Below the pieces are notes generated by a model that saw only the letters and a list, made by a program, of their open reading frames with translations, had not been told where the DNA came from and ran no database searches. 64,000 nucleotides of DNA from Pseudobdellovibrionaceae bacterium. Its GTDB lineage: Bacteria > Bdellovibrionota > Bdellovibrionia > Bdellovibrionales > UBA1609. The stretch covers positions 65,375-129,374 of the forward strand of contig CANEZP010000013.1 in NCBI GenBank assembly GCA_947444305.1. The letters are read 5' to 3'. Positions 1 to 19,449 of this stretch are shown here, piece after piece; within the stretch, counting starts at the first letter, position 1, and every line of letters begins with the position of its first letter. Made by a program: the position numbers and the translations under genes.

Positions 1-2
1 CG

Positions 3-206
3 GGCACGCAATCCGTCTTCGCTCGTAAATTTTTACCTGTGCTTAATCTTCCCGAGTTAAGTTTGCGCGTACCGCTCGCGGTGGGGCCGCAGTACTATTC
101 GATTCTCCGGGTGGAGAACGTGGCGTACAAACCGTTTTCTGAATTCGAAACGGAACGACAAAAGCCATGGGACTCGCGCCGTCTTGACCACCAATCGAAG
201 CCGTGA
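3..206 (+). CDS. C-terminal fragment (67 codons) of an unidentified protein whose gene starts upstream of the window
   Basis: Frame 3 is open from the window edge to TGA at 204-206. It is missing from the ORF track only because it has no start. No motif recognised. Confidence 0.3.
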   Translation, partial: GTQSVFARKFLPVLNLPELSLRVPLAVGPQYYSILRVENVAYKPFSEFETERQKPWDSRRLDHQSKP

Positions 207-218
207 GGATAATGGGCC

Positions 219-1148
219 ATGGCGCACGGCTCAGGACACCACCATCATCATCACCACAGTCATGGTCACCATTCCCACGGATCGGGTGACAGCGCGACCC
301 GCAACATCGGCGTCGCGTTTTGGCTTAATCTTTCCTTCGCGGTCATCGAATTGGCCGGCGGGCTTTACACACAAAGCTTAGCGGTATTATCCGACGCGCT
401 CCATGACTTCGGCGACGCGATTTCGCTCGGCATGGGCTACTTTCTGCAACGTAAATCGAGCGAAGGCCCCTCCGAACACTACTCGTACGGCAAACGCCGT
501 TTCTCGCTTTTGTCGGCCTGCATTTCGGGCATGGTCATTTCCGGCGGCGCCATTTTTATTTTGATTGAAAGTATCTCCGGCTTCAACGATCCACGCGAGC
601 CCAACGGCGTCGGCATGTTCGGCCTGGCGATCTTCGGCATCGCGGTCAACGGTTTCGCGGCCTGGCGCCTCGGCCATGGGCATACGCACAACGAGAAGAT
701 GCTGAAATGGCATTTACTCGAAGACGTTTTAGGCTGGGTCGCGGTTCTCATCGGTAGCGGGCTGATCTACTTTTTCGGATGGGTTTGGATTGATCCGTTG
801 TTGGCGATCGGCATTTCGCTTTTTGTTTTGTACAACGTCGTTCGCCACCTTATCGAAACCGTAAATCTGTTCTTACAAGCGAACCCTGATCCCGAAGGCT
901 TACGCACGTTCCGTCTGCAGGCCGAGGGCATCACCGGCGTTTCGGGAATTCACGATCTGCACTTCTGGAGCTTGGACGGCGTTCGTCACATCCTTTCGCT
1001 CCACGCGGTACTCATCGATCTTGGCCAAGCCGAGATGGTGAAGGAGCAGATTCGTTTGTTCAGCAAAACTTTGGGTGACTGCCACGTGACCGTCGAGGTC
1101 GAAGGCCCCGGCGAACACTGCCATGACGATTGTGAAGAGCAAAAATAA
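219..1148 (+). CDS. Cation diffusion facilitator (CDF) family divalent-metal efflux transporter (CzcD/ZitB-like) with His-rich N-terminus
   Basis: 309 aa. N-terminal HGSGHHHHHHHSHGHHSHG tract, multiple TM segments, CDF-like SDALHDFGD and HLLEDVLGW motifs, and a C-terminal cytoplasmic domain (HDLHFWSL). Confidence 0.9.
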   Translation: MAHGSGHHHHHHHSHGHHSHGSGDSATRNIGVAFWLNLSFAVIELAGGLYTQSLAVLSDALHDFGDAISLGMGYFLQRKSSEGPSEHYSYGKRRFSLLSACISGMVISGGAIFILIESISGFNDPREPNGVGMFGLAIFGIAVNGFAAWRLGHGHTHNEKMLKWHLLEDVLGWVAVLIGSGLIYFFGWVWIDPLLAIGISLFVLYNVVRHLIETVNLFLQANPDPEGLRTFRLQAEGITGVSGIHDLHFWSLDGVRHILSLHAVLIDLGQAEMVKEQIRLFSKTLGDCHVTVEVEGPGEHCHDDCEEQK

Positions 1149-2398
1149 TGATGTTCGTTTATCGTGTCCTTGTCGCGCCCCTCTTCATGCTCGCCCTGCC
1201 CGTAGCGGCGATTTTTAATAAAAAAATTAGCGCGGGCCTCAAGATGCGCCGACAAAGCCGGCAATACCCGGAGTTAAGCCAACGCCCCGTATGGATCCAC
1301 GCTTCGAGCGGTGAATTCGAGTACGCAAAATCTTTGATCCGCGAACTAAAAAACCGTTTGCCGATGGTGCCCGTGGTGGTGACCTACTTCTCGCCAACTT
1401 ACGCCAATAACGTTCACAACTTCCCGGGCGTCGATTTCGCGATGCCGCTGCCGCTCGACCTGCCGGGCCCCGTGACTTCCTTTTTGAAACGCGTGAATCC
1501 GCGCGCTCTGCTGCTCTCACGCACCGACTTCTGGCCCGAGCTTTTAACGCAAACGAGACGACGCCAAATTCCCGTCCAGGTTTTTTCGTACACGCAAAAG
1601 TCGCCGGAACAGATGTCTTGGCTAACGAAGCTCGCCGCCCAATGGCGTTTAAAACTCGTGGATCAAATCCACTGCGTCAGTGAAGAAGACAAACGCAACG
1701 TCGAAGCGCTCTCGGTGAAAACTCCCGTACGCGTCCTCGGGGACACCCGTTACGATCAAGTGCGCTTCCGGCTCGATCACCCGAAAGAGTTGCCCGCTTC
1801 GCTCAAGCCCAGGCCCGGCATTCCGTGTTTGGTCGCCGGCAGCACGTGGCCCGAAGATGAGCAGGTTTTATTGCCCGCGATCAAACCGTTATTAGCCGCG
1901 GGACGCTTGCAGCTGATCATGGCGCCTCACGAGCCGACCGAAAAACATATCGGTGAATTGAAACAGCAGATGCTCGCGCACGGGATCAACTTCACTCTTT
2001 TCTCGAGCGGTCATTCTTGGCACGAATCGCAAGTGCTCTTGATCGATCAAGTGGGTTGGCTGGCGGAGCTGTACGCCTGGGGCGACATGGCCTTCATCGG
2101 TGGATCTTTTAAGAAGACCGTACATTCGGTAATGGAAGCGCTTGGCGCCGGACTTAAAACTTTCGTCGGGCCCTTGCACACGAACAATCGTGAAGCCATT
2201 GAATTCCAGAGCGTGAAGGTCGCGGGCGTCGCCGCGGTGACGGAAGTTCGTAACAGCGAGCAGTGGCGTGAAGAGCTCGGTAAGTATGACCTCACCGAGC
2301 TGCGCGCGTTTAAAGAAGAATTCTCTAAAGAATTTGCGGCGCGCTTAGGCGCCACTCAGAAATTAGTCGACCTGGTTTCGGGCACGCTGCAGGTCTGA
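1148..2398 (+). CDS. waaA: 3-deoxy-D-manno-octulosonic acid (Kdo) transferase
   Basis: 416 aa with an N-terminal membrane anchor. WIHASSGEFEYAKSLIRELK matches the H-x-S-x-GE region of WaaA/KdtA. FIGGSF...MEALGAG...GP matches the C-terminal GGS...PLEAA...GP region. The ATG overlaps the CDF stop. Confidence 0.85.
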   Translation: MMFVYRVLVAPLFMLALPVAAIFNKKISAGLKMRRQSRQYPELSQRPVWIHASSGEFEYAKSLIRELKNRLPMVPVVVTYFSPTYANNVHNFPGVDFAMPLPLDLPGPVTSFLKRVNPRALLLSRTDFWPELLTQTRRRQIPVQVFSYTQKSPEQMSWLTKLAAQWRLKLVDQIHCVSEEDKRNVEALSVKTPVRVLGDTRYDQVRFRLDHPKELPASLKPRPGIPCLVAGSTWPEDEQVLLPAIKPLLAAGRLQLIMAPHEPTEKHIGELKQQMLAHGINFTLFSSGHSWHESQVLLIDQVGWLAELYAWGDMAFIGGSFKKTVHSVMEALGAGLKTFVGPLHTNNREAIEFQSVKVAGVAAVTEVRNSEQWREELGKYDLTELRAFKEEFSKEFAARLGATQKLVDLVSGTLQV

Positions 2399-5300
2399 GC
2401 GTTTCTCTTTCGATTTCACTTCGAAGTTCATATCCATATCGACCTTCGTCATCTCGAGAGGAAATTGCGTTAAGCCTTCTTCCTCTTCCAAGACGGTGTA
2501 AAAGCCGGGAAACGAAGGCACGATGCGCTTGTAGGTGTCGCGCATGTGCGCGAGCGGCCAATCGATCGTTCGCTCTTTGGGCGTAACCATGTTCTTGGTC
2601 ATTTCCCAGAACGAGATGCCTTCTTGCTTACGAATCAAACCGATGAAGCTGCCGAAATCGCGGTAACCACGCAGGGCCAGAAGCCACGGGTGGTTATAAA
2701 GATCCGCCTGATCCAGCATATCGCCTTCGGTAAAGTGCTGCGTGAAGTAGAAGTACATCTCGTCCACGTAGCGCGGTTGGGTCACGTGGCGTCCCTCGCA
2801 AACGAACATCGAACGAGCCGTTCCGTGTACCTTAGGTTCATAGGCAATCACGCCGTAGAGATCGAGGGATCGCAGGAATTCTGGCGTGAAACTCATCGCG
2901 TAGCAACGTTCGTACTCGTCCAAACGCACGCGGAATTTCGCGATCTGCGCGACGAGGTAAGTCGACTCACTGATCGAAGTTCCGTCCCCGCGCGAAGTGG
3001 CCGTGCTCCAGCCGGCTTTGATCGACAACGGCTTGATGAATGAAGTTAGCGGGGCAATGACTTCGGAAGCTTTCGACAGCGCACCCGCTCCCGTTGCGGC
3101 TAAGGCGCTGCCCGGTGAAGCATTGGCCAAGCGGCCCAGAGAACCCGAAACTCCGCCCGCGGCACCGATGAAGTCGGTGCCTTCGAGACCCACGCCCAAT
3201 GAATAGCCCGTCGAGCGGCCAACCGAAAAGGATTGACCGACGTTGATGTTCATTTGGTAGCCGCCCAAGAAAACGTACGAGTCATCGGCATCGCCCGTTC
3301 TAAAAACGCGAAGCTTCTGATCGAAGAAAACCGGACTTTGATTATTGGCCAAACATTTCGCTAATATTTCGCGCGAGAGCTGCCCGGTGTCTTTTATATA
3401 AGGAACACCGGTAGCGCTAAACGAGCCTACCTGAGCGTTATTAGCCGCAAGCGATTGTGAGAAGTTGGCCGTCACCAGCGAACACGCGGCGTAGCGACGC
3501 GCGTTTTCGTTCTTCGGTACGAACAAAGCGCGCTGGAGATCGCGGACATCCCACTCGGTGGCCTTGACGTCGCGAACCCCGGTCACCCAGGCTTTAATGT
3601 CCGAAACCAATCCACCGGTCAGTGCTAAATTTGAGTTTACCCATGAAAGAGCGCGATCTACCGGCACCCACCGATCGGTGGTTTCCGTCATGCAGGACAC
3701 GAGGTTATTTCCACAACGGGCAAACGTTGCCGAATCGAATTCAACGGCTTTGGGTTTCTCGTCGGCGAGCGAAAGGAAGTTCATCGAATACGCTTGCGCG
3801 TAATTGTAGACCGAGCCGACGGCCGGGATGTTGGTCTTGTAGATGTAGCGATATTTGTCTTCGCGCTCGATCAGGCTATCGACGTGTGCATAGCACAAGT
3901 GCCGAAGCGAACCGAAGTACTCGCTAAATTTGTAAAGCGTATTTTCGCGCGTTTTCGAAGCGAGCTGCTCGGACTTGCTGAAAAGTTCGCGGCGGTAATC
4001 GTCCATCGCCCGTTCACGATCGTCTTCGAACTGAACTTTTTGGTCGCACTTTGCTTCATCTAAGTTGTCGGTCGCGCGAACGGAGTCTTTGTAACCGTTC
4101 GATAAGAAGATGACCGGACCGACGAAGGTACGCCGCGCGAGACCGGGGCCTTTCTCGGTGATGTCGTCGGGTGAATCGCCTTGTTCCACGAAGTGATCGC
4201 AGTCGATTTCCGAACACGGCGGAAGTTTGATCGTCGTAAAATCATTGGTCGCGAGATTATCCGAAAGCGCCGTCTTGTTCACGTCGAGCAATTCTTGGAT
4301 TTCTTTGCCGAAAGACAAGATCTGTTCTTCGCTGATCGATACGGGCTCCATGCTTACGCCCGAAGCGTTGCCCTGCTTCAATTGTGAAGAAAGCAGCGAG
4401 AATAACGTACGCGTCTTCTCGCGGCGATTTTCGATCAACTTATCGGTGCGAGCGTCTTCTTCCGCCCGGATTTTATTCTGATCGTATTCAGAAACCTTCG
4501 AAGTTCCCAAGAGCGCGTTTCGCTCTTTGCGTTCTTTAGCGAGATTATCGAGGTAGCCGCCAAAGTTACCGCGCAGTACGTTCTCGACCTGTAACTGATG
4601 TTCGTCGACCGGCTGCAATTCGATCAAGAAGTTCGAGCGAACCCGCATCATTCGCAAATCTTGCATCGTGAATTCTACGGGCTGAATGATCACGCCGTCG
4701 GTTGAACGTACCAAAGCGGTTTGCGTGCTAATGAATTCACGCTGGGGAACGTCGATGCCCAACCGGCGAAGACGCGTACGCGCGTTCTTCGAATCCGAAG
4801 CCATCCCGTCGACCGTAACACCTTTTTGCTGCTCACCGGGCACGGGTAAAGTCTTTTGACCGGCGACCACTTCGGCGCTGTTGTCGGACTGCGCCTCTTT
4901 TAGCGCGTCGATGTGGATACCGACCTGCGCGGGATCCAGATAATTTTTCTGGATTCCGACCTTCATGAGCCAGATCCCATCCCGCAAGGGTTCGGTCAGT
5001 TTACGGGCGTTGATGATGCCTGAGTAACGAAGTACGCGCGGATCCAACTCCATGAGAACGGTCTTACGGACCTCGAGCGCCATGAGCGAGTCGATATTGT
5101 ATTGGAAACGCACGGTGTGATAGCCAAAATCCGCCAAGAAAAACCGGCTCGGAATTTTCTTACGGCCTAACAACTGTTTCCAAAAATCAGGCTGAAATTC
5201 GCGTTCGTCGAAGCCGAAGGTGAACTTGTCGTCCCACGGATTGATGTAGAAACGCAAATCCCGCGCGAAGCCGCTGGCTTTGGCAATCGTCACGTTTCGC

Positions 5301-6781
5301 TCTAAGAATTTTTCAGGCTGGTAGTATTTGTGGAATATCGAGGAGCTCCAGCGCAAGCAACCGTCTTCGCCCGTCTTCTGGTCCTTGATCACTTCGCCGG
5401 TTTCTTTATAGCTGATCTGGAACGGTAAACCGACCGGGCGCTCGCCCGTAAATGCGTCGGTGATGCAAGTCGATGCCGTGTAGGTAACGGTTCTTTGCGT
5501 CGTCGTTTCTCCCGGTTCTACTTGAGCGAAACGTAAATTCATACGGTCGAAGAGATAAGGCGAATTGTCTGAGCCGTACTGATTCTTGCGCATTTCATCG
5601 AAATTCGCAGAACCTTTTAAGTACGAAGCGATATCGCAAGGCCCGTCCTCACGGCAGTTCTTATTGAGATCACCGGAAAAAGTGGACGATAAGTTGCGGA
5701 AGGTACCAAGCTCGTAAATCCCCTCGGCCGACGAAAGGCCGCGGATGCCCTTAGGGATAACTTTAAGTACGAGCTCGAGATTCCCCTGCGGCATGCGATC
5801 GCGAACCCACGTACTTACGTGAGCGATCAGCTTACCGTCGACGACGCGGCCGGTACCGATGATGCCGAGGTCAGCGACTTTTTTCTGCTCTTCCGAGGTC
5901 TCCCCGCTCGAGGTCAGGATCAACCGCTGATTCAATTTCGGACCGGTATTGTTCAAGACGAGGTGAGCAATGACGTAAAAGTCACCATCGCGAACTTCGC
6001 GGTAGGCCGGCATTCCTTCTTGGTTTTCGAAACGGATCTTGGGCGTCATGCTGATGTTCATGCGGAAGAGCATGCCCGTTTTTTCTTCACCGCTGCGGAT
6101 CGTTTGGATGCTGACGTCACCGATGTAGAGCTTATCCTGACCGAAGGCTTCGCCCGACAAAGCGGAATCGGCTTGCGCGGGCGGCAACACGAGACTCGGA
6201 TGCAAAGGCTTATCACGGAGGAAGCGGAACTCATCGCCCGAATCACGCGCGTGGGTACCGACGGCCCATGGATTCAGCGCGACCTTTACGCGTTGACGGC
6301 CGCTATGAACGCCCGTCCCGACGATGTCGCGCTCAACCGTCACCCACTTGCTACGTTTGACGTAGTAAGTGAACGGTAGGGACTCGTGCCAGCTAAAACA
6401 GCCGTCACCCGTCGACGCCGGGATGTCTTGGATACGCGCGCGCGTTTCGGGAATTTCGATCGCGAATTGGTGGCCGATCGCGGCCGAGCGGGTCGAGCGA
6501 TCCTCGATGCAAGCGGTAAAACGGAAGCTCACGTCGCGCGGGATACGCCAAACCGAGGCGTACATAAGGTTCGTCGTAGGATCTTTCGCGGTCGTCGGAA
6601 CTTGCAAGATCTGGCCGTCGCCGATGAGACTTCGAACACGGAAGGTCGCCGAACCTTCGGCACCCTGGTTGCCGTTCACGCCGTCGGGTTTAGAGTCGGG
6701 CCGCGTACACGCGGTCAGCCCGATGAACAGCGAACAAACGATGAGTAATGCGGTTTTTGATGTTTGATTAAAACGGCGCAT
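2363..6781 (-). CDS. Very large (about 1470 aa) predicted lipoprotein of unknown function (module 3 partner)
   Basis: ORF 2363-6976 trimmed to the internal ATG at 6781 (MRRFNQTSKTALLIVCSLFIGLTAC, a signal peptide plus lipobox). This ATG lies 14 nt inside the upstream barrel gene. The protein has two copies of a ~90-aa Cys-containing domain and a Gly/Ser/Ala-rich stretch near the C-terminus. No family recognised. Confidence 0.75.
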   Translation of the reverse strand: MRRFNQTSKTALLIVCSLFIGLTACTRPDSKPDGVNGNQGAEGSATFRVRSLIGDGQILQVPTTAKDPTTNLMYASVWRIPRDVSFRFTACIEDRSTRSAAIGHQFAIEIPETRARIQDIPASTGDGCFSWHESLPFTYYVKRSKWVTVERDIVGTGVHSGRQRVKVALNPWAVGTHARDSGDEFRFLRDKPLHPSLVLPPAQADSALSGEAFGQDKLYIGDVSIQTIRSGEEKTGMLFRMNISMTPKIRFENQEGMPAYREVRDGDFYVIAHLVLNNTGPKLNQRLILTSSGETSEEQKKVADLGIIGTGRVVDGKLIAHVSTWVRDRMPQGNLELVLKVIPKGIRGLSSAEGIYELGTFRNLSSTFSGDLNKNCREDGPCDIASYLKGSANFDEMRKNQYGSDNSPYLFDRMNLRFAQVEPGETTTQRTVTYTASTCITDAFTGERPVGLPFQISYKETGEVIKDQKTGEDGCLRWSSSIFHKYYQPEKFLERNVTIAKASGFARDLRFYINPWDDKFTFGFDEREFQPDFWKQLLGRKKIPSRFFLADFGYHTVRFQYNIDSLMALEVRKTVLMELDPRVLRYSGIINARKLTEPLRDGIWLMKVGIQKNYLDPAQVGIHIDALKEAQSDNSAEVVAGQKTLPVPGEQQKGVTVDGMASDSKNARTRLRRLGIDVPQREFISTQTALVRSTDGVIIQPVEFTMQDLRMMRVRSNFLIELQPVDEHQLQVENVLRGNFGGYLDNLAKERKERNALLGTSKVSEYDQNKIRAEEDARTDKLIENRREKTRTLFSLLSSQLKQGNASGVSMEPVSISEEQILSFGKEIQELLDVNKTALSDNLATNDFTTIKLPPCSEIDCDHFVEQGDSPDDITEKGPGLARRTFVGPVIFLSNGYKDSVRATDNLDEAKCDQKVQFEDDRERAMDDYRRELFSKSEQLASKTRENTLYKFSEYFGSLRHLCYAHVDSLIEREDKYRYIYKTNIPAVGSVYNYAQAYSMNFLSLADEKPKAVEFDSATFARCGNNLVSCMTETTDRWVPVDRALSWVNSNLALTGGLVSDIKAWVTGVRDVKATEWDVRDLQRALFVPKNENARRYAACSLVTANFSQSLAANNAQVGSFSATGVPYIKDTGQLSREILAKCLANNQSPVFFDQKLRVFRTGDADDSYVFLGGYQMNINVGQSFSVGRSTGYSLGVGLEGTDFIGAAGGVSGSLGRLANASPGSALAATGAGALSKASEVIAPLTSFIKPLSIKAGWSTATSRGDGTSISESTYLVAQIAKFRVRLDEYERCYAMSFTPEFLRSLDLYGVIAYEPKVHGTARSMFVCEGRHVTQPRYVDEMYFYFTQHFTEGDMLDQADLYNHPWLLALRGYRDFGSFIGLIRKQEGISFWEMTKNMVTPKERTIDWPLAHMRDTYKRIVPSFPGFYTVLEEEEGLTQFPLEMTKVDMDMNFEVKSKEKRSDLQRARNQVD

Positions 6782-7916
6782 AATCAGTCTCCACCCCAAC
6801 GTATATAATAGATAAATCGCGCTGATTGGGATCGCGGTTGATTGGTTCGGCCTGGTAATTTTCGGCGTAAATCGAGAAGCCTTCTTTTTTGAAATGCACA
6901 TTGGCCTCGATGTTGTAACCGGTACGATTGGTGTTTCCGAATTTAGATTTACTGTACGCCGCGACCGTCGAATCACTTTCGGTAAAGAACGGACGCACGC
7001 GGAGATCGACGACGATATCGCCGAAGATCATCTTAGGTCCGATGCCGACCAACTGGGCATCGGCCGAATCGCCCGGTGCCTTCATGTTGTGAACACGTTC
7101 GTATTCGATGATCCCGCTGATCCACGATCCGGTGCAGAGACAGAGGCTTCCGGCGGCGTACCAACCTTGATGATCGTAAAGAAACCGGCTGCCGGCGATA
7201 TTCTCGCCCACGCCGACGTTACCGACCAAGCGGCTGTCACTGACGACTTTGTCGGGAATATTAGACCAATCGTAGAGTCCGACGCCGGCCTTCCATTCGA
7301 TCAATCCGAAGTTCTTGTCGGAGAGCTGTAAGGTCTGCGTGCTGAAAGTCGGCATCTTCTCTTGCGTGGCCCGTTCGGTATTTAAAGAGTGTGAAGTAGG
7401 AATGACTTGTTGAACGATCAAGCGTGCGTTGAAATCACCCGTTCCGTACTTCGCGATCGCTTGCGCGCCGGGGAACGAGCGCTGTCCCGAGATCAAAAGA
7501 CTCGTGCCGTGAAAACCTTGATTTATGGCCCCCGCGCGCAGCTCGCCGAACTTTACCGGTTCGAGCGCGACGTAACCGTCGTACATCCAAAGCCGGCTCT
7601 CTTCGCCGGAATCGGAATAACGTTCTTGAACGCGTGAGGAAAAAACACTGGCGCGCGGTTCAAGTCGTGCGCGCAACCAAGGTGCGAATTTGTAATCGAG
7701 ATTAAAGCCCGCGTAGAAGAAAGCGGCGGCTTCGTTGTCTTTGCCGTGGACGAGCGAAATCCCGCCCATAGAAAGGTTCCATTCGCCTTCGAGCTTGCGC
7801 GGCGGGAGCTCGGCACTCTTGAGCGTTGACGACGCCGAGTTCTGCCCGAACGCGGGCAAAGAAAAGGCGATCAATACGCTGAAAAGCATTTTGCTAAACT
7901 TGGACCCCACTAACAT
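6768..7916 (-). CDS. Predicted outer-membrane beta-barrel protein (module 3 barrel)
   Basis: 382 aa. Sec signal peptide MLVGSKFSKMLFSVLIAFSLPAFGQ, alternating beta-strand-like sequence, C-terminal ...GVETDYAPF (terminal Phe typical of OMPs). AGGA-type RBS upstream. Confidence 0.7.
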   Translation of the reverse strand: MLVGSKFSKMLFSVLIAFSLPAFGQNSASSTLKSAELPPRKLEGEWNLSMGGISLVHGKDNEAAAFFYAGFNLDYKFAPWLRARLEPRASVFSSRVQERYSDSGEESRLWMYDGYVALEPVKFGELRAGAINQGFHGTSLLISGQRSFPGAQAIAKYGTGDFNARLIVQQVIPTSHSLNTERATQEKMPTFSTQTLQLSDKNFGLIEWKAGVGLYDWSNIPDKVVSDSRLVGNVGVGENIAGSRFLYDHQGWYAAGSLCLCTGSWISGIIEYERVHNMKAPGDSADAQLVGIGPKMIFGDIVVDLRVRPFFTESDSTVAAYSKSKFGNTNRTGYNIEANVHFKKEGFSIYAENYQAEPINRDPNQRDLSIIYVGVETDYAPF

Positions 7917-8405
7917 TCCATCCTATTCAAGGCTTTGTCGTTAGAACCGGTTAAGTACAATTTCTATTCCAAATCGCAGACTTATCGCCGCGTGTTCAAA
8001 AATCGTTAAATTGAGCTTTGCATCGCTTATACGCATCGTGGGCACCTCAGCGCAATGGGATTTCCGTCAAGATTTGGATCGATTGTGATAACGCATGAAA
8101 TTTTTTACCGACTTGCGCGAAGTTTGATCAGGCGCACGCCGACCCCCTCATAAACGCAGGGTGGGACCACCGGAGCTGTTGCAAGAACTACCCGTTGCCA
8201 TTTTGGGTGCGTCCAAACCAGGCGGTCCGGAGGCAACCCGAACCGGGCCTCCCAGAACATTTTTTAAATACTTTTAATTTATATGCCGCCGAAGCGAGTC
8301 TTTCGTAGGTATCTAATGGGCTTACCTACACGGTAAGGACACAACGCGCATGGACTTCAGCGGCGCCGATTTGTACAAATGGAGTCAAATCATCCAGGAG
8401 CGAAC

Positions 8406-9704
8406 ATGCAAGCCTTCAAACCCCTGCGCGAAGTCCCCAAAAATTCCTACTCAGATAAAGATGTGCTCGTCATCTTCGGCGAAGTTTTCGCCCGCGGCTA
8501 CGTCAACGGGTTGATCGATGAGGCCAAGAAAGCCGGCATGAAGGTAATCTACAGCACCGTCGGGCGCCGAGACGAGAATGAACAACTTCGCCCCCTGACC
8601 GCGGAAGAGCTCGCGACCAAAGATCAACCGCTGATCAATATCCCCCTCGAATGCGGATTCGACCTGACCAAGTCTTCGAAGGGCCAATCGCCCGCCGATC
8701 AATTGAAAGGCCTGAAACTCAGCGAATGGGACAAGGCCGAAATGGATTTCGGGCAGGTCGAAGAGTCGCGCCGCAAAGGCCGGGAAGATTTCCGCAAGCG
8801 CGTGGCGCAGTACATGGTCGAACTCGAAAAAATGATTCCGGCCGGCGCCAACGTTTTGTTCGCGCACACGATGGCCGGTGGCGTTCCCCGTGCGAAAATC
8901 GTCTTGCCCGCGATGAACCGGGTTTTTAAGGGGCATGGCGAGCGCTACGCTTCGTCGAAACAGTTTTGGGAAGGCACGCTCGGCAAGTTCAGCGAAATGA
9001 GCTTTATGGACGTCACCGCGAATAGCTTAGCCGACTTGGTCGATCTTTCCTCGGCATTACGTGAAAAAACAAAAAAGTCCGGTGGCGCGGTTTCCTACGT
9101 GGCGTTCGGTTACCACGGAACCGAGATTTTAATCGACGGTGAATACCAGTGGCAATCCTACGCCCCTTACCTACAAGGCTTCGCGAAAATCGAGCTAGAA
9201 AACATCGCCCGTCGTTCGCTCGAAAAAGGTGTTCCCGTTAGCGTTTACAACGCGCCCGAAATTCTGACCAACTCGAGCTCAATTTTTTTGGGCGTCGAAG
9301 TGGCGCTCTATCCCCTGCTCGGCGCGCTGATGAAAGAAGCGCCCGACCATCCGGTCACGAAGCAATTGGTTAAGGATTGCGAAGCGCTGCTCAAGCCGGA
9401 ACACTCGCTAGAAGAAATTCTAAAAATCACCAACGATTACTTCACTTCCGACATCATTTTAAAGAATTGGACCAAGTACGAGCAGTGGCCGCAACACAAC
9501 GGCCCTGAGCAAATGGCCTTGATGCGCACGACTTCCGAGAAAATCATCGACATGCATAAGGATGAAAAGCACCTGCTCACCGCGAAGCTCAGTGAAATTG
9601 TATTCAACGCTTGCGGAAAAGCGATGATTAGCGAGGGTAAAAACCCGCGCGAGGCCGTCTGGTGGGTCGGCCACGATCTCGTTTCTAAATTGACGTTAGT
9701 ATAA
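8406..9704 (+). CDS. Conserved hypothetical protein, distantly FabV / trans-2-enoyl-CoA reductase-like
   Basis: Start moved to the ATG at 8406, preceded by AGGAG. VSVYNAPEILTNSSSIFLGVEVALYPLLGALMKE resembles the FabV/TER block SV-K-A-VT-ASS-IP--PLYL--LFKVMKE. There is a Y-x8-K spacing in YAPYLQGFAK. The N-terminal Gly-rich dinucleotide motif is not conserved (VLVIFGEVFARG). The comparison is from memory only. Confidence 0.45.
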   Translation: MQAFKPLREVPKNSYSDKDVLVIFGEVFARGYVNGLIDEAKKAGMKVIYSTVGRRDENEQLRPLTAEELATKDQPLINIPLECGFDLTKSSKGQSPADQLKGLKLSEWDKAEMDFGQVEESRRKGREDFRKRVAQYMVELEKMIPAGANVLFAHTMAGGVPRAKIVLPAMNRVFKGHGERYASSKQFWEGTLGKFSEMSFMDVTANSLADLVDLSSALREKTKKSGGAVSYVAFGYHGTEILIDGEYQWQSYAPYLQGFAKIELENIARRSLEKGVPVSVYNAPEILTNSSSIFLGVEVALYPLLGALMKEAPDHPVTKQLVKDCEALLKPEHSLEEILKITNDYFTSDIILKNWTKYEQWPQHNGPEQMALMRTTSEKIIDMHKDEKHLLTAKLSEIVFNACGKAMISEGKNPREAVWWVGHDLVSKLTLV

Positions 9705-10559
9705 CGGGCCGGCTTTCACGCCGATGTTGTAGACGAAATAAGCGAGCGGTGCCGCGCTGACGGCGCCGAGGATAAGGCCTTCGGGCAAAGTTTTCTTGGG
9801 CACGAAACCCAGCCAGTCGCGGATCCATAGGACGAAGTACGGCAGGCAAAGGTAAATCATGTGCCAGGGATTAATATCTAGATAGAAATGCCCGGCGGCC
9901 ATCAGTAAAATCACGAACACCGATAAAAACGGCACGAGGGCGTTCATACTAAGGCGCTGTGGTTTTACGAGCGCTAACACCAAGGCCGCGCCGAACAGCG
10001 CACACGCGACCGAAACGATCTGCGAATACGAAGCGCTAGCCGCGAACAACATCAAGAGACTCAAACCCGTCGCGGCGATAAGCGGCAGCAGAATCAAGGT
10101 CGTGGGCATCACCTTCGGGGCCGTTTTTTCGACGATCGACCACACGCCCAAGGCTAAGCAGAAAAACGCCACGAGATTACGATAGTAAATCGGCGCGAGG
10201 ATCGTTTGGCGAAGGGGATATAAAATTACGGCACCGAGTGCGAGCACGAAAAGCGCGCGGACCAAATACCGGTGGCCCAGCGGTTGCGGCCGCACAAAGA
10301 TGAACACCGCTAATAACAGCGCGGCGAGACTGAAGGCCTCCCCGGCGTCGGTCGGAGGAACGTGCAGGCGCCGGATCAAAACAAAAGCGCCCGCGGAGAA
10401 CGCGAGCGCGAAAACCAAACCTTGGGCGCGTGCCTTCCAAGGTTCTTTAAGAAATCCGAGAAGAAAAATCACCACCGCCGCGACCGAAGCCGGCGCAACG
10501 GCGCTCATCAAAAAGGCGCGGACGATGGGTGAATCCATATTAGATCTTTGTTCCTTCAA
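9696..10559 (-). CDS. Polytopic inner-membrane protein, unknown function
   Basis: 287 aa with about 8 hydrophobic segments. An alternative ATG at 10538 would remove the 20-nt overlap with yceI-like. It is the last gene of the same-strand run. Confidence 0.6.
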   Translation of the reverse strand: MKEQRSNMDSPIVRAFLMSAVAPASVAAVVIFLLGFLKEPWKARAQGLVFALAFSAGAFVLIRRLHVPPTDAGEAFSLAALLLAVFIFVRPQPLGHRYLVRALFVLALGAVILYPLRQTILAPIYYRNLVAFFCLALGVWSIVEKTAPKVMPTTLILLPLIAATGLSLLMLFAASASYSQIVSVACALFGAALVLALVKPQRLSMNALVPFLSVFVILLMAAGHFYLDINPWHMIYLCLPYFVLWIRDWLGFVPKKTLPEGLILGAVSAAPLAYFVYNIGVKAGPLY

Positions 10560-11115
10560 CCGAGATTTGAACTTCGACTTCGTCGCCGACTTCGCCGGGT
10601 TTAGCCATGTAGTTCATGCCGAAATCCGTGCGCTTGATCGTTAACGTCGTGATGCCGCCCGTGCGAACGTTGTTCCAGGGATCTTTGCCGGTTTTCATTT
10701 GCGTGAAAGTAAATGAAACGGGTTTGGTCACGCCGTGCAGCGTGAGGTCGGCGGTGACGTCGTACTTCGCGCCGGCTTTTTTGACCGTTTTGCTTTTCAA
10801 AGTCATGGTTGGAAACTGTTTTACGTTAAAGAAGTCAGGGCTCTTTAAGTGATCGTCGCGCTTCTTTGCCATCGTGTTGATGGTGTCGAGCTTTGCGCTC
10901 ACTTCGAAGGTCGATTTTTCGGGATTTTTTTCGTCGACGACGATCTTACCGTCGGCGCCGCCGATCATGCCGTACACATTCGAGAATCCCATGTGATCGA
11001 TTTTGAAAACGATCGCGGTGTGATCCGGATCAACTTTGTATGACGTCGTTTGTGCCTGGGCTTGTGAAACAGCGGCGAATGAAATCGCGGCTAGAGCAAT
11101 TGCTAGAACTCTCAT
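10540..11115 (-). CDS. YceI-family periplasmic (polyisoprenoid/lipid-binding) protein
   Basis: 191 aa. Signal peptide MRVLAIALAAISFAAVSQAQA, then YKVDPDHTAIVFKIDHMGFSNVYG and ...TLHGVTKPV blocks typical of the YceI-like domain. Confidence 0.85.
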   Translation of the reverse strand: MRVLAIALAAISFAAVSQAQAQTTSYKVDPDHTAIVFKIDHMGFSNVYGMIGGADGKIVVDEKNPEKSTFEVSAKLDTINTMAKKRDDHLKSPDFFNVKQFPTMTLKSKTVKKAGAKYDVTADLTLHGVTKPVSFTFTQMKTGKDPWNNVRTGGITTLTIKRTDFGMNYMAKPGEVGDEVEVQISVEGTKI

Positions 11116-11178
11116 GATGTTTACCTCCGTATAAAATTGTTCTTATATGAAACAACGTAGAAAAGGTAAGCTCAAGGA

Positions 11179-13602
11179 CTAAATGCAATTGGGTGGCATC
11201 AAGAGATCAGAACCTAGACACGGGATCTGCGGCATATCCGCGTTCGGCGGCGGTGGATCCGGTTTCTTAACGGTATCGAAAAGCTTGGCGATAATCACCT
11301 TGAACACCGTCGATAAATCTGCGCGATTTAAACTCAAGTTACCGGTTCGGACGTAAGTTAACCAAGCAATATCCCAAAAACCGGTAGGCATCTCGCGGTT
11401 CGTAAGGATGTAGTAAAACGCACCCTTGGCTTGGCGGTCGCTCAAGTTCTGGTTCATTTTATCCTTCGCAAATTTCTTGATGAAACCCATGAAAATCTCG
11501 GCCGCGGGGTCGATCTCCGGGTTGCTCAAAGTGCCGTCCCGGTCGGCGTCGAAGCGGGTCATCACGGCCTCGGCGTAGTGCATGACGACCGCGAGCGTGG
11601 TGAACTCGCTATATTCAACCCACGGCGTGACGGAGTTTTTAGGCGAGAACGCCGTTTCAAGCAGCGTTCGTGCATGCGCCTGGCGAATCGGGAGCGGCGC
11701 GACCCGCAAGAACTGCTGCAGATCAGGCATGCTGCCTAAATGAGCATCGAAGGTCGCGGGCAAATTTTCGAGTACGCAATTACGATCAAGCTTAGGACGC
11801 TTGTACATATCCGGTGGGCCATGGGGGCAGACCGCTTTGAGATCCGCGTAGAAGTCGTCGGCCAGGCGCCCGCCCGAAAGCATGAACGAAAACAACTCGA
11901 TCGCCTCAACCATTCGTAAACGGCCCTTCGGCGCGCCGGGCTCCGAATTAATACCGTCGCCCGAATAGGTGAAAAGATTGGCGGCGGTAAAATCCCGGTT
12001 CCCCATGTTTGGGTTGCGCTGATCGACCAACTTAAGCGCGATCCCGATCTCACGGAAATCGGCGTAAAACTTTTCGACCTCTTCGAGCGTGATGCCTGAG
12101 TCGAAGCCGATGCGGCTGCCCGCGTGCTCGGCGTAACCGCGGAACAACGCTTGCGCCGAAGTCCGCCATAGATTCATCAACGTTAGATTGTGGTAAGTGT
12201 GCCGCAAATTATTGCGCGCGAGATCTTCGTGCCGAACGAGTCCGACGCGGTAGCTTCCGTCCGCGAATAAGGGGCGCATAAGACCGCGCAAGGATAAGAA
12301 ATCATCCCATTCGGAACTGCCGAGGCTCTTGAGTTTCAAGCGAACATCGGGGGTCATGTACGGTCTGATCTGCACGTTCGGCACGACTTTTTGCGCAGCG
12401 AGAGTACCCGCTAAGCGTGTGTCCAAATTCATTTGGATATAGGCCCAGCGAAAGAAAATATCCCGCGCGCGAGCCACGTTGGTCAGCGCTAAGCCTTCGG
12501 TCTTACGCTGACTGGCCGGGATCTCGGGATCACCCAAAATTCGGGTGACCACGGCCGCAAGAGCCCCGTTGATGGATGACGGCGGAATGTGCGCGGGGAT
12601 CCAGCGTAAATCATAGGTCGCCTTCGTTAACTCATCGAGCTGCGCGAACCGGATCGTCAGCCCCTCTTGTTTCGAGGCGGCTTGCTCGATCAAATTAAAT
12701 ACGTCGTTCGCGAGCTGAATCGTATTTTGCAACCCTACCCCGCGTAAGATCGGCTGGTCCTTTACCCCGATTTGATATTGGAGATAGACGAGGTACCAGC
12801 GAGCGAACGATTGCAGCATGGGCGTCCACTCGAGCGGCCGCACCGTGTTCGGATCGATCGGCGCAACGGTGAGCTGGCGGAAAATACGGATGAAGCTCAC
12901 CCATTTTGCGGGCGAGATCGCGTCGGGAAAGTGTTCATCCCAACCGGCGAACGCGCGGAATTCGACCAGCAAACTTTGCAGGCTCGCCAACGTATAATTG
13001 CGCTGATTGCGCTGCAGACGCATGGCTAAAGTTTTGATCACCGAGTTGAGCGCTTCGTTCGCATCGGCTAAGCGCTTGCCGAGGGTTGCGGGATCTTGCT
13101 CCTGCGCCAAGCGCGGATTCAAAACGCGAAGGTGGGGTTTCAAGCGAATCGCTTCGTTTTTGAACTCTTCAAGCATTTCGACCAGGGCGTGCAACTCTTC
13201 GCGCGAAATCGCCGTGCTCGAACCGCCGAGGATCGCTTGTTTGAGAATCATAACTTCGCCCATGAGTTCGTCTTTCAAACGACGCTCGTTCAAAAAGAAG
13301 CTATGCAGGAACTGACGGATTTCATCGGGCGAATAAGAGGTGGCATTGCGCCCTCGGGTCAGTTGCGCGAACGTGGTGAACGCCTTTTGCAAACAGCTCA
13401 CGAACTCGGTCACTTGCTCGTTCGAAAGTTGATCGTTTACGTAGCGGTCGAAGTGCTCGGGAATTTTACCGACGCAGCTAAAACCTTTGCCGCTGTACGA
13501 GGGCGGCGGGCGTTTGGGCGCGCTTTCACCAGTGGATAACCCACAACCCGGCAGCGCCAGTGAAATCGCGACCACGAAGGACAGCGGTGTTTTAAAAAAC
13601 AT
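11179..13602 (-). CDS. Large lipoprotein B2 (807 aa), paralogue of B1, with a canonical EF-hand loop; unknown function
   Basis: Signal peptide plus lipobox MFFKTPLSFVVAISLALPGC. Aligns with the 15071-17161 product from the N-terminus (SNEQVTEFVSCLQKA) to the C-terminus. Contains DADRDGTLSNPE. The ATG lies 11 nt inside the upstream barrel gene. Confidence 0.8.
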   Translation of the reverse strand: MFFKTPLSFVVAISLALPGCGLSTGESAPKRPPPSYSGKGFSCVGKIPEHFDRYVNDQLSNEQVTEFVSCLQKAFTTFAQLTRGRNATSYSPDEIRQFLHSFFLNERRLKDELMGEVMILKQAILGGSSTAISREELHALVEMLEEFKNEAIRLKPHLRVLNPRLAQEQDPATLGKRLADANEALNSVIKTLAMRLQRNQRNYTLASLQSLLVEFRAFAGWDEHFPDAISPAKWVSFIRIFRQLTVAPIDPNTVRPLEWTPMLQSFARWYLVYLQYQIGVKDQPILRGVGLQNTIQLANDVFNLIEQAASKQEGLTIRFAQLDELTKATYDLRWIPAHIPPSSINGALAAVVTRILGDPEIPASQRKTEGLALTNVARARDIFFRWAYIQMNLDTRLAGTLAAQKVVPNVQIRPYMTPDVRLKLKSLGSSEWDDFLSLRGLMRPLFADGSYRVGLVRHEDLARNNLRHTYHNLTLMNLWRTSAQALFRGYAEHAGSRIGFDSGITLEEVEKFYADFREIGIALKLVDQRNPNMGNRDFTAANLFTYSGDGINSEPGAPKGRLRMVEAIELFSFMLSGGRLADDFYADLKAVCPHGPPDMYKRPKLDRNCVLENLPATFDAHLGSMPDLQQFLRVAPLPIRQAHARTLLETAFSPKNSVTPWVEYSEFTTLAVVMHYAEAVMTRFDADRDGTLSNPEIDPAAEIFMGFIKKFAKDKMNQNLSDRQAKGAFYYILTNREMPTGFWDIAWLTYVRTGNLSLNRADLSTVFKVIIAKLFDTVKKPDPPPPNADMPQIPCLGSDLLMPPNCI

Positions 13603-14983
13603 AACTTACGCCCCCGAAGAAGCGGTCGTTCGCGCGGTAAGTCGAGAACAATCCCGCGCGGTCGGAGTTTGAATCGACGTCGGCCCCGAGCACATCGGCC
13701 CCGAGCAACCAGGTCACGTCACCTTGGGCAAACTCAACGCTGGTCGATAGCCAACCGCCCTTTTCCGGGATCGAGTAGCTGTAGCGGCTACGTAAGGAAA
13801 GACCGTTGCTCTTCGTTTGCGAGAGCACGATGCGCCAGTCCACCGAAGCCAAGTCTTTGAAGGGATACCGGTCGAGCGAAGACTTCACTTGATCATCGGC
13901 GACGATGCCGCCGGTCGCTGATTTCCCCATCGAGAAAACGCGCATGTAAGAGTAGCCGAGCCACGACGGCTTGCCGATTACGCTGAAGACGTAATGTGAA
14001 TATCCGAGCCCCGCGACCAACATCGGATCGAGCGGCGCTTCGAGCCAAGGATCGGGGAACCCCGACTTGCTCGGCACGTCGACGGTCGCCGAGACCCACC
14101 CGTGGTCGTCGGTGCGGTCAAAACCCATCTCCCACGTTAGCACGTGGTGTTTAACGATCTTTGGATGAATCACGGCCGTGACTTCAAGCCCTTGGCCCGC
14201 GCCGATACGCGCGCAGTTCGAGCATTCGATGCCTAAATGAATTTGGTTGCGCGGCTTGTACGCGTAATTCAAATTGGTCCAGAAGTCGTTCAAGAATTCG
14301 TAACGCACCCCGAGCCCGAAGCTTGAGTGCATGATGATGTCTTCCTCGGTGGGCTTATCGATTTCGAAAAAGAGCGGGCCGTCTTTCGTGACGGGGTTAT
14401 TGCCCTGAAACTGCAAGCTTGAATGCGGTTGCTCAAACCAACGGTTTGAGGACTCGAAACGCCCGTTGGCCAGCCGGTACTGTGGCCCCTGATCCGGGAA
14501 CGCGAGCGGCGACGTGAAGAATGTAAAGCTGAGCTCGGAACCTAGCCGCCAATCGAAGAAAACGCCGGTCAAACCTTGTTGAACGGGCGCCAGGTAATCC
14601 CAGCGCAGCTGCGGTTGCCAGAGGCCGAGGTTGAATTCCTCATCCATCTTGCTCCACGTACGCTTAGCCCGTCCGATCGTCAGATTGAACCACGGCGCAA
14701 TTTTGCGCGGCATCACGTAGGCTTCGGGTACGCCGAAGTAAAACTCGTCACGGTTTTTGAAATCGCCCTGCGCACGTGAATTGAATTTGTATGTAAATCC
14801 CGAGGTTTCGGTTTCTAAGTTCAAGTCGGTCGCGATGAGCGTGTAGTTTGATTCTTGATTAGGATTGGGGACCGCCCCGAAATACCGGTTTTGGCGTAAA
14901 TCCAAATCCAGGTAATTGGCGGCGGACTTGGCGAAGAGAGGTCCGCTCATAATGAGGAGAATCAAAACAATAAAAAATCGCAT
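13592..14983 (-). CDS. Predicted outer-membrane beta-barrel A2 (463 aa), paralogue of A1
   Basis: Signal peptide MRFFIVLILLIMSGPLFAKSA, beta-rich sequence, C-terminal YRANDRFFGGVSYVF. Shares IGRAKRTWSKMDEEFNLGLWQPQL with the A1 block LGRKKERWNEWEGEWRQGLFQPRY. Confidence 0.75.
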   Translation of the reverse strand: MRFFIVLILLIMSGPLFAKSAANYLDLDLRQNRYFGAVPNPNQESNYTLIATDLNLETETSGFTYKFNSRAQGDFKNRDEFYFGVPEAYVMPRKIAPWFNLTIGRAKRTWSKMDEEFNLGLWQPQLRWDYLAPVQQGLTGVFFDWRLGSELSFTFFTSPLAFPDQGPQYRLANGRFESSNRWFEQPHSSLQFQGNNPVTKDGPLFFEIDKPTEEDIIMHSSFGLGVRYEFLNDFWTNLNYAYKPRNQIHLGIECSNCARIGAGQGLEVTAVIHPKIVKHHVLTWEMGFDRTDDHGWVSATVDVPSKSGFPDPWLEAPLDPMLVAGLGYSHYVFSVIGKPSWLGYSYMRVFSMGKSATGGIVADDQVKSSLDRYPFKDLASVDWRIVLSQTKSNGLSLRSRYSYSIPEKGGWLSTSVEFAQGDVTWLLGADVLGADVDSNSDRAGLFSTYRANDRFFGGVSYVF

Positions 14984-15070
14984 TTGATTCCGATGTTTTA
15001 CACGGATATAGGCAGTGGTTTCAATTTGGAGCCAAGTATCATGTAGTCTTTACTTGGCCGTAGTCGGCAT

Positions 15071-18587: not shown

Positions 18588-18654
18588 TTAGGCCACCCCC
18601 GCCCCACTCACCGTTTTATAAAACCGGCGTCGGGAGTAGCAAGCTATTTAGTTT

Positions 18655-19449
18655 TTATATGGAAACTTCGCTGACGTGCCGCTCTGCCGATGAATTCCAC
18701 GCCACAATTTTCTGAACGGTCCACGCAGCATCATCCCACGGTAAATCGTGTCCGGCCCACGCGTGCCGCTCGATCGGCCAACCCCATTTATCGTGCAAGA
18801 CGGTTGAGCAAGATGGATCGACTAAGCGATCCCCCAAACCGTTGAGCAGAAGCACCGGAAGATTGACCGGCTTTTGCAAACCATCGAAGAACGCCGCCGC
18901 GAGCAATTGATTCGTAAAATTGAGATAAGAAATCGGCCGTTCGATCGCGAGCTTAATCCATGGCGGGAGTGCCTTGGCCCGTGCTTCTTCGCTGTTCATG
19001 ATGATTTCGATGATTTGACGTTCGCGTTCTTTCGCGGATTGGGTCGCCAACATTTTTCCAAACTTCGACCAAACTTGCCAACGCATGCGATGATACAGCG
19101 GACTCAAAGATTTAGCGCTCGTATTGATGAGGACCGCACCGGATAAATCTTCGGGCCGCTGGTTCATCCACTCCATCGCGACCATTCCGCCGAGCGAAAC
19201 GGTAAGGAGTTTAAATTGCGATTGCGATCGCGCACGTTCAATCGCTTTGGCGCGCACGAAGGTGAATATCTCGCCCATGGATTTGGGGCTGCGTTCGTCT
19301 AAGAACTCGCCACTGCCCGGAAGATCAATCGGCAGCACGTCGTCTTTCGGAAATGCCTGTTTGAATAAATCTAAAAAATTGCCCCAGTGGCCATGCTCGC
19401 GCGCGAGTCCGCGCAGTAAAATCCACGCCGTTGTTTTTTCAGTCGGCAT
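18655..19449 (-). CDS. Alpha/beta-fold hydrolase
   Basis: 264 aa. LLRGLAREHGHWG N-terminal block, nucleophile-elbow-like TVSLGGMVAM, C-terminal His region (AWAGHDLPWD). The ATG overlaps the stop of the upstream peptidase gene by 11 nt. Confidence 0.7.
   Translation of the reverse strand: MPTEKTTAWILLRGLAREHGHWGNFLDLFKQAFPKDDVLPIDLPGSGEFLDERSPKSMGEIFTFVRAKAIERARSQSQFKLLTVSLGGMVAMEWMNQRPEDLSGAVLINTSAKSLSPLYHRMRWQVWSKFGKMLATQSAKERERQIIEIIMNSEEARAKALPPWIKLAIERPISYLNFTNQLLAAAFFDGLQKPVNLPVLLLNGLGDRLVDPSCSTVLHDKWGWPIERHAWAGHDLPWDDAAWTVQKIVAWNSSAERHVSEVSI

Follow-up and report, generated by a model that had tools for sequence, protein, structure and literature searches.

Do a small outer-membrane barrel protein and a very large lipoprotein, encoded by two overlapping genes of a Pseudobdellovibrionaceae bacterium, work together as one unit of the cell envelope, and does such a unit belong to any barrel-lipoprotein system already described? 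The two genes lie in a 64,000-nucleotide stretch of contig CANEZP010000013.1 (assembly GCA_947444305.1, positions 65,375 to 129,374 of the forward strand), called the window below; its G+C content was about 54%, and the locus showed no compositional break. Both genes are on the minus strand. The barrel gene (6768-7916) encodes a 382-aa product and is followed by the lipoprotein gene (2363-6781), which encodes a product of 1,472 aa. These coordinates, sizes and strand, together with the DYAPF end of the first protein and the LTAC lipobox of the second, had been proposed in an initial annotation of the window and agree with the list of open reading frames (ORFs) and their translations. Comparison of the two sequences with their homologs indicates that these are two real, conserved genes, translationally coupled and forming one two-gene operon.

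The mechanically derived ORF of the lipoprotein extends from 2363 to 6976 (-) and holds an in-frame ATG at 6781, with GGAG 7 nt upstream; translation from this codon gives the 1,472-aa product, with the N-terminus MRRFNQTSKTALLIVCSLFIGLTAC. The junction sequence (GATTATGCGCCGTTTTAA / GGAGACTGATTATGCGCCGTTTTAA) places this ATG 14 nt inside the barrel gene, as the initial annotation had it, and the barrel stop ends at 6768; the shared 14 nt (ATGCGCCGTTTTAA) occupy 6768-6781 (-). The barrel protein starts with the signal peptide MLVGSKFSKMLFSVLIAFSLPAFG (7845-7916, -), directly followed by the mature N-terminus QNSAS, and ends in VGVETDYAPF before the stop codon. The lipoprotein starts with a signal peptide and lipobox (…LFIGLTAC; 6707-6781, -), with Cys25 as the predicted lipidated residue. 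LTAC agrees with the bacterial lipobox pattern [LVI][ASTVI][GAS]C, the cysteine is conserved, and lipidation is predicted.

The arrangement of the two genes was compared across related genomes. A scan of GTDB with one genome per species retrieved 50 loci, all of them through the pattern of a 30-residue motif in the lipoprotein (YFYFTQHFTEGDMLDQADLYNHPWLLALRG, described below), and hidden Markov models (HMMs) of both families were run on 54 fetched loci, in 14 of which the contig broke off before the upstream neighbor of the lipoprotein gene. A barrel homolog was encoded immediately upstream and on the same strand in every locus with upstream DNA (40/40). The adjacency persisted at lipoprotein identities as low as about 24-30% and also where the flanks had changed (L003/L004), and the HMM search found no barrel homolog outside this pairing in the fetched loci. 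The two families were also similar in size (34 barrel and 37 lipoprotein homologs) and occurred on common contigs.

The junction between the genes was conserved as well. The lipoprotein start overlapped the barrel stop in 33 of 34 loci, with a range of 4-20 nt, and the overlap was exactly 14 nt in 24 of the 34. All 34 loci in which the start could be placed encoded a signal peptide and lipobox cysteine, and M1 and Cys25 (L-T-A-C) were invariant in the lipoprotein family alignment. The gene arrangement is therefore not a product of chance, because both proteins have homologs, these two residues do not vary and the lipobox is present at every such locus. Conservation of the start/stop overlap indicates in turn that the barrel and the lipoprotein are translated in a coupled manner. 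The expectation that the pair would be syntenic elsewhere, that the start lies within the barrel gene, and that the lipobox looks functional was in this way borne out across the family.

Searches of a word-indexed set of 5.8 billion proteins yielded 37 lipoprotein homologs of 1,372-1,633 aa, none with a Pfam domain, and the only names attached to them were "hypothetical protein" from metagenome-assembled genomes (MAGs) of Bdellovibrionaceae. The 34 barrel homologs in the same set were of similar lengths and were all unannotated. When a profile of the lipoprotein C-terminal domain was searched against 1.84 billion proteins (representatives at 50% identity), 408 clusters were found at E ≤ 0.001 and 183 at E ≤ 1e-30. 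The full-length members listed span about 1,200 to 2,137 aa, with the C-terminal domain at or near the C-terminal end. Ten sampled clusters were metagenomic singletons, and Pseudobdellovibrionaceae was the sole name among them. All 50 GTDB loci came from MAGs assigned to Bdellovibrionales, Pseudobdellovibrionaceae, Bdellovibrionaceae, Bacteriovoracaceae or Bdellovibrionia. No named cultured organism was among the 50 loci or the ten clusters; the scan used two exact peptide patterns, so that absence from cultured Bdellovibrio is unproven. The pair thus appears, from these sequences, to be a clade-wide module confined to the Bdellovibrionota among the sources that carry a name. No paper describing either family was found in the literature. 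In one MAG, CBDHDF01, the lipoprotein family was represented twice, on separate contigs (L027 and L053), with the second copy truncated where its contig ends; paralogous copies therefore exist in some genomes.

The first of the two proteins had been proposed to be a beta-barrel, and structure prediction supported this. AlphaFold2, given the family alignment, produced a confident model (mean predicted local distance difference test score (pLDDT) 86.3; predicted template modeling score (pTM) 0.81) with 16 beta-strands and no periplasmic domain. The signal peptide was a low-pLDDT, unstructured or helical segment, and strand 1 began at residue 41, preceded by about 15 mature residues. Foldseek comparison of the model to PDB gave 225 matches at E ≤ 0.001, and the top matches were mainly 16-stranded porins (Omp36, OmpK36, PorB, OmpM1, OmpF/C and OprB), with E values of 4e-10 to 1e-8, template modeling (TM) scores of 0.5-0.63 and about 11% identity. 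In the family alignment the C-terminus GVETDYAxF was conserved, with an invariant terminal F382, and most full-length rows had a hydrophobic N-terminus. In other words, the 382-aa protein has the generic features of an outer-membrane beta-barrel: a signal peptide, 16 strands, short turns and long loops, and an aromatic C-terminal end.

At the level of sequence, no porin family scored above its Pfam threshold against the barrel. Porin_5 was a weak match only (16 bits versus a cutoff of 22, E 0.0047); sub-threshold Porin_5 matches were found in 9 of 31 family members, and Porin_4 matched one of the 31 at E 0.12. Nothing was above threshold in Pfam, NCBIfam, PHROGs or PADLOC, and a profile of the barrel family had no significant match among PDB sequences.

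The distribution of conserved residues over the barrel was unusual for a porin. Topology was assigned by the standard rule for outer-membrane proteins, with both termini in the periplasm, and loops and turns were named accordingly. Periplasmic turns were 2-5 residues long, while the predicted extracellular loops reached 31 residues. Mean conservation was highest in the predicted extracellular loops (0.68), intermediate in the strands (0.60) and lowest in the periplasmic turns (0.45), and 33 of the 63 positions with at least 90% conservation fell in loops. The best-conserved parts of the protein were loops L4 (IPTSHSLNTER..E..P) and L7 (ESDATVAAYNKSKFGNTN). General porins have the reverse pattern, with loops less conserved than strands. 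The loops of this barrel are the part under the strongest constraint, and this constraint could come from binding of a partner, from a constriction formed by folding inward, or from both. A Cys-x-Cys motif (LCLC) was also present at residues 259-261 (7132-7140, -), in the predicted periplasmic turn T5; it was found in most close homologs and was absent from distant ones. Barrels of the outer membrane seldom contain cysteines.

These observations bear on one explanation for the locus, which is that an ordinary diffusion porin and an unrelated envelope lipoprotein, with independent functions, happen to share a vertically inherited operon. General porins are indeed the nearest structures, 9 of the 31 members searched weakly resemble Porin_5, and gene order around the pair is broadly conserved, which makes synteny alone weak evidence. 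Downstream, the gene for KdtA/WaaA (1148-2398, +) is convergent with the lipoprotein gene and its 3' end overlaps it by 36 nt; upstream, fabMG (encoding an enoyl-ACP reductase; 8379-9704, +) is divergent from the barrel gene. A neighboring fabMG was conserved in 28 of 35 loci and a convergent kdtA in 33 of 50, often with overlapping 3' ends. The conserved fabMG/kdtA surroundings make the locus look like an old, vertically inherited piece of chromosome in the Bdellovibrionales. Nonetheless, the barrel and lipoprotein genes stayed together in 40 of 40 loci, including those with changed flanks (L003/L004, and 17 loci in which kdtA was missing beside the pair), and their overlap was conserved. The inverse of the porin pattern in the loops, and the fact that no barrel homolog was found outside the pairing in the fetched loci, also argue against independence, and we consider this explanation improbable.

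The lipoprotein was dissected using column conservation, internal profile comparison and an AlphaFold2 model of residues 273-1472, which was good within domains and unreliable between them (pLDDT 66.9, pTM 0.41). Residues 25-45 form a conserved tether after the cysteine that is rich in Pro, Asp, Lys and Gly (consensus C-T-K-P-D-x-K-P-D-G-V-N-G). Two beta-sandwich repeats with paired cysteines follow: the first at residues 82-172 (6266-6538, -), with C91/C128, a conserved Trp and an NPW end, and the second at residues 430-516 (5234-5494, -), with C439/C475 and a pLDDT of about 87. Each domain has a conserved Cys pair, taken as a disulfide, and an NPW end. These domains are homologous to each other, as hhalign aligned residues 26-420 to residues 400-740 with a probability of 97% (E 1e-10). 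Additional well-conserved beta-rich segments, with 19-residue strands, were found at residues 545-587 and 683-725. A poorly conserved, coiled-coil-like helical stalk (residues 727-845; 4247-4603, -; column conservation 0.27-0.36) comes next; its helices, each about 30-35 residues long, lie at 455-486, 496-531 and 546-573 in the numbering of the model. The remainder is a mixed alpha/beta C-terminal domain with long strands (residues 850-1472; 2366-4234, -), which was delimited by the conservation profile and the profile search and is home to the most invariant segment of the family. Most of the 16 cysteines in the mature protein are conserved, as would suit a protein located outside the cytoplasm. 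Within the tether, a C-[TV]-K-[AP]-D pattern (residues 26-36; 6674-6706, -) recurs across the family. It faintly recalls the Lys-plus-acidic export signal of Bacteroidota lipoproteins and is a lead on surface sorting only.

None of these domains could be assigned to a known family. The lipoprotein had nothing above threshold in Pfam, NCBIfam, PHROGs or PADLOC; Pfam was likewise empty for five distant long members, and neither the full-length profile nor the C-terminal profile had a significant match among PDB sequences. Heme-binding CxxCH, zinc-protease HExxH and thioester C-x-E-Q motifs were all absent from the sequence. Matches to coronavirus spike S2 (residues 949-1103, about 3473-3937) came at E of about 1 in the PDB profile search and were taken as noise; they are not significant and are recorded since a fusion-protein-like reading would be striking. 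Foldseek comparison of the model to PDB and to the viral BFVD gave no match at E ≤ 0.001.

The best Foldseek matches were sandwiches of the Ig-like or MG type, headed, at a non-significant E of 0.026 and with the aligned part unspecified, by the MG2 domain of alpha2-macroglobulin. This raises the idea that the lipoprotein is an alpha2-macroglobulin-like protease trap built from MG-type beta-sandwiches; bacterial alpha2-macroglobulins are, by textbook account, lipoproteins of similar size, and the top matches included complement C3/C4 as well as MG2. There is no Pfam A2M, MG or thioester domain in the protein, however, and no C-x-E-Q motif, and the C-terminal half matched no alpha2-macroglobulin domain. 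Because the thioester motif and the matching domains are missing, the protease trap is essentially refuted.

Two elements of the C-terminal domain stood out. The first is a Ser/Gly-rich amphipathic beta-hairpin with arms at residues 1176-1200 and 1248-1277 (2951-3256, -), recognized from its composition and period-2 alternation. Its arms of about 24 residues kept a strict period-2 alternation across 140 family members (L-N-I-N-V-G-x-S-F-S-V-S ... F-S-L-K ... S-V-S-E-S-T-Y-L-V), the region was 54-110 aa long, and it contained 18.5% Ser and 16.3% Gly. The tip is Gly/Ala-rich, hydrophobic and variable in length, with a hydrophobic maximum above 1.0 in 68% of the members. AlphaFold2 did not place the hairpin (pLDDT about 30), and the strands on either side of it were predicted with high confidence. 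The second is the 30-residue motif YFYFTQHFTEGDMLDQADLYNHPWLLALRG (residues 1343-1372; 2666-2755, -), which was invariant at 25 of 30 positions in the alignment and whose core, HFTEGDMLDQADLYNHPW, was modeled at a pLDDT below 50. Hairpin and motif are thus conserved and nevertheless unplaced in a monomer, as expected for segments that depend on a partner or on a membrane. Glycine-zipper Pfam families (SlyB/YMGG/Gly-zipper_Omp) matched the tip in some homologs only, below their cutoffs (E 0.004-0.6), and did not match the lipoprotein of the window; membership of the tip in these families was rejected.

The model that best accommodates these observations is one in which the barrel would be the obligate partner of the lipoprotein (its anchor, its conduit or both) rather than a general diffusion porin. 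The conserved extracellular or lumen-facing loops of the barrel would dock the C-terminal module of the lipoprotein, with its HFTEGDMLDQADLYNHPW motif and its hairpin. One of two segments, the hairpin or the N-terminal tether, would lie in the lumen of the barrel or bind to the loops. The resulting assembly would cross the outer membrane, with a logic like that of LptD-LptE, RcsF-OmpA/C/F, or Slam with surface lipoproteins. In such an assembly, the beta-sandwich domains and the stalk would extend away from the membrane, with the surface of the presumably predatory cells as the likeliest side. An obligate complex is proposed because adjacency was perfect despite divergence and changes in the flanks, because the overlap was conserved, because the loops are the most constrained part of the barrel, and because the most invariant segment of the lipoprotein lies within its C-terminal module; in addition, the hairpin and the motif are the segments that the monomer model cannot place. 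The parts of this model differ in strength. That the two proteins form a physical complex is probable. That the operon encodes a dedicated outer-membrane complex, with the barrel as anchor or conduit of the lipoprotein, has a little less than an even chance. Exposure of the bulk of the lipoprotein on the cell surface is more doubtful, and a role of the pair in prey contact is unlikely. The initial annotation had suggested a surface-exposed or periplasm-spanning cargo or partner; the lipoprotein may face either side of the outer membrane.

Several points weigh against this model. The structure of the lipoprotein was predicted with only moderate confidence (pLDDT 67, pTM 0.41). Conservation of the loops might mean no more than that they narrow the lumen from within, as loop L3 does in porins, and the adjacency could reflect strong conservation of gene order in this clade, as fabMG and kdtA were also kept in most loci. 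Furthermore, every named source of either family was a MAG from the Bdellovibrionota.

A different placement of the same proteins would make the lipoprotein an envelope strut that faces the periplasm. It would sit in the inner leaflet of the outer membrane, with the barrel as a fixed anchor, as OmpC/F is for MlaA, and would stretch its stalk and C-terminal domain in the direction of the peptidoglycan or the inner membrane. This agrees with the textbook default route of outer-membrane lipoproteins through Lol, which leaves them facing the periplasm. At about 30-35 residues, each helix of the stalk could cover several nm, and the hairpin tip resembles, at sub-threshold scores and in some homologs, membrane hairpins of the glycine-zipper type. 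The locus is also surrounded by lipid and lipopolysaccharide (LPS) genes: fabMG, kdtA and, beyond kdtA in nine loci, a gene for a GT9 heptosyltransferase. A functional link of the pair to LPS or lipid biogenesis is possible on the basis of this gene neighborhood. Against a strut, the barrel has periplasmic turns of just 2-5 residues, where conservation is lowest (0.45), and conserved positions are concentrated on the opposite, extracellular or lumen-facing side, so that purely periplasmic docking is hard to reconcile with the alignment. No peptidoglycan-binding domain (OmpA_C, LysM or SPOR) or other Pfam domain was found. The strut, with the proposed reach of its stalk, is judged unlikely.

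Alternatively, the barrel may act on the lipoprotein without staying bound to it, as a Slam-like translocon that recognizes the conserved C-terminal domain and catalytically flips or exports the protein to the surface. Slam genes often adjoin the genes of their substrate lipoproteins, and these substrates consist of a conserved C-terminal domain and a variable N-terminal region (PMC5449769). The pair studied here resembles Slam/DUF560 (type XI secretion) with its TbpB-like lipoproteins in that a barrel gene lies beside the gene of a lipoprotein with a conserved C-terminus and an N-terminal part of variable length; constant adjacency, an invariant C-terminal segment and total lengths of about 1,200-2,137 aa all follow this genetic logic. 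Unlike Slam, the barrel has no DUF560 and no N-terminal periplasmic TPR region in Pfam searches, it has 16 strands versus the 14 predicted for Slam, and it comes from another phylum. The lipoprotein is 5-10 times larger than Slam substrates and does not end in an eight-stranded barrel in the AlphaFold2 model, and it had no match to TbpB or fHbp in Pfam or PDB. Tight translational coupling also fits the production of stoichiometric amounts better than it fits a catalyst. Catalytic export by the barrel is, on balance, quite unlikely.

Other systems that combine a barrel with a lipoprotein were closer to the proposed complex in concept than in detail. RcsF pairs with OmpA (8 strands) or OmpC/F (16 strands) in interlocked complexes, and one RcsF segment threads the lumen, so that the protein spans the outer membrane (PMC4942254). 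The likeness to RcsF-OmpA/OmpC/OmpF lies in the combination of a lipoprotein with a barrel, and the tether after Cys25 and the long hairpin are candidates for lumen-threading segments. RcsF, however, is a small protein that relies on housekeeping porins from other loci, whereas the barrel studied here is predicted to be dedicated, co-transcribed and specific to its family. LptD is a 26-stranded barrel with a periplasmic beta-jellyroll, and LptE is a protein of about 190 aa. The proposed complex would be like LptD-LptE in the obligate association of its barrel with its lipoprotein, and the locus studied adjoins the LPS genes for KdtA and the heptosyltransferase; the pair had no sequence match to LptD/LptE in Pfam or NCBIfam and no structural similarity to them, the barrel here being 382 aa in length with 16 strands. 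General porins (OmpF/OmpC/OmpK36, PorB, OmpM1 and OprB) are the nearest structures, but they differ from this barrel, which was below the Pfam threshold, has loops that are more conserved than its strands and always occurs with a partner lipoprotein.

Two further types of complex were considered and rejected. Two-partner secretion (TpsB/Omp85) was rejected because there was no Pfam match to ShlB, POTRA or Haemagg_act; moreover, the roughly 15 mature residues ahead of strand 1 leave no room for POTRA domains. A porin-cytochrome complex of the MtrCAB type was rejected because the lipoprotein contains no CxxCH. SlyB associates with outer-membrane proteins. In some homologs of the lipoprotein, the hydrophobic hairpin tip rich in Gly and Ala resembles, at sub-threshold scores, a glycine zipper. 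SlyB and YfgH are glycine-zipper lipoproteins, and association with outer-membrane proteins is reported for YfgH (bioRxiv 10.64898/2025.12.22.696046). Overall, the pair appears to follow the genetic logic of known barrel-lipoprotein pairs, yet it is a member of none of the named barrel-lipoprotein systems with which it was compared. What is already known is the general kind, a dedicated outer-membrane barrel with a cognate lipoprotein; what appears to be new is a 16-stranded barrel with conserved loops that lacks POTRA and TPR domains, combined with a lipoprotein of about 1,450 aa that carries a new C-terminal module.

The hairpin also invites comparison with beta-pore-forming toxins of the aerolysin and alpha-hemolysin type, which it resembles in its length, its richness in Ser, Thr and Gly and its amphipathic, stem-like arms; the likeness is one of composition and pattern only. 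No family or fold match to aerolysin/ETX-MTX2, leukocidin or MACPF/CDC pore-forming toxins was found, and the CDC-like match had a probability of 0.02. By this analogy, the pair could be a contact weapon or attachment device of a predator, in which the barrel would hold the giant lipoprotein on the surface and, once prey is touched, the C-terminal module would drive its Ser-rich hairpin, hydrophobic tip included, into the outer membrane of the prey to form a junction or a pore. Such a device is improbable, and so is the role that the hairpin would have in it, comparable to that of a toxin stem or a fusion loop.

Regulatory signals around the operon were few. The 462-bp intergenic region (7917-8378), which is common to the barrel gene and the divergent fabMG, is the presumed location of the operon promoter. 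No sigma-70-like site was found in it, and promoter and terminator scans gave site counts no higher than those in shuffled sequence. A sigma-28-like site (TTAAC-N16-GGCGATAA) was present at about 7982-8009 (-), 65 nt upstream of the barrel ATG. An attack-phase sigma-28 promoter was rejected, as 3 of 38 orthologous upstream regions carried such a site, which equals the chance expectation (about 3), and the site is probably fortuitous. A terminator-like GC-rich hairpin, recognized by a consensus match only, follows the lipoprotein stop at 2336-2355 (-), within the 3' end of kdtA. Rfam identified no RNA element in positions 1-20000, and the locus had no match to phage (PHROG) or defense-system (PADLOC) protein families.

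The window contains two other modules with a similar layout, A1 (13592-14983, -) with B1 (11179-13602, -) and A2 (17151-18587, -) with B2 (15071-17161, -), each consisting of a barrel candidate and a candidate lipoprotein. The A/B operons are in tandem, with a stop/start overlap of 11 nt in each. A1 and A2 are paralogs (E 2e-19), as are B1 and B2 (E 8e-28). The B1 and B2 signal peptides end in LPGC and TAGC, which are only loosely lipobox-like, and both proteins, judged from their sequences, appear to be largely alpha-helical. The A family had 103 homologs, no Pfam match and nothing significant when its profile was compared to PDB sequences. Both the A and the B families are uncharacterized and specific to the Bdellovibrionota.

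Homology between the pair studied and these modules was rejected. BLASTP between them gave E values of at least 0.19, and hhalign gave a probability of 0.1% for the barrel family against the A family and 0.2% for the lipoprotein family against B1 and B2. The three modules are alike in that the gene of a signal-peptide protein with an aromatic end comes first and the gene of a candidate lipoprotein, overlapping it by 11 or 14 nt, comes second. The earlier proposal that neither protein resembles the A/B paralogs, and that it is the organization rather than the sequence that is conserved, accordingly stands for this shared layout, in which the A proteins are barrel candidates.

To our knowledge, the holding or moving of large lipoproteins at the outer membrane has been explained for only a few systems (LptDE, RcsF with its outer-membrane proteins, Slam and SusCD), and the way in which Bdellovibrio-like predators attach to and breach the envelopes of their prey is understood only in small part. 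The pair described here is without homology to any characterized family, and it offers definite elements on which to focus: the conserved loops, the 30-residue motif and the stem-like hairpin. If the two proteins form no complex, they still make up a large family that lacks annotation and merits a named entry in the domain databases. If the hairpin of the lipoprotein were inserted into prey membranes, the pair would represent a class of envelope machine not described before. If the proposed complex does span the outer membrane, it would extend the known range of barrel-lipoprotein systems by a new architecture, and it would provide a defined candidate for the surface biology of predatory bacteria.

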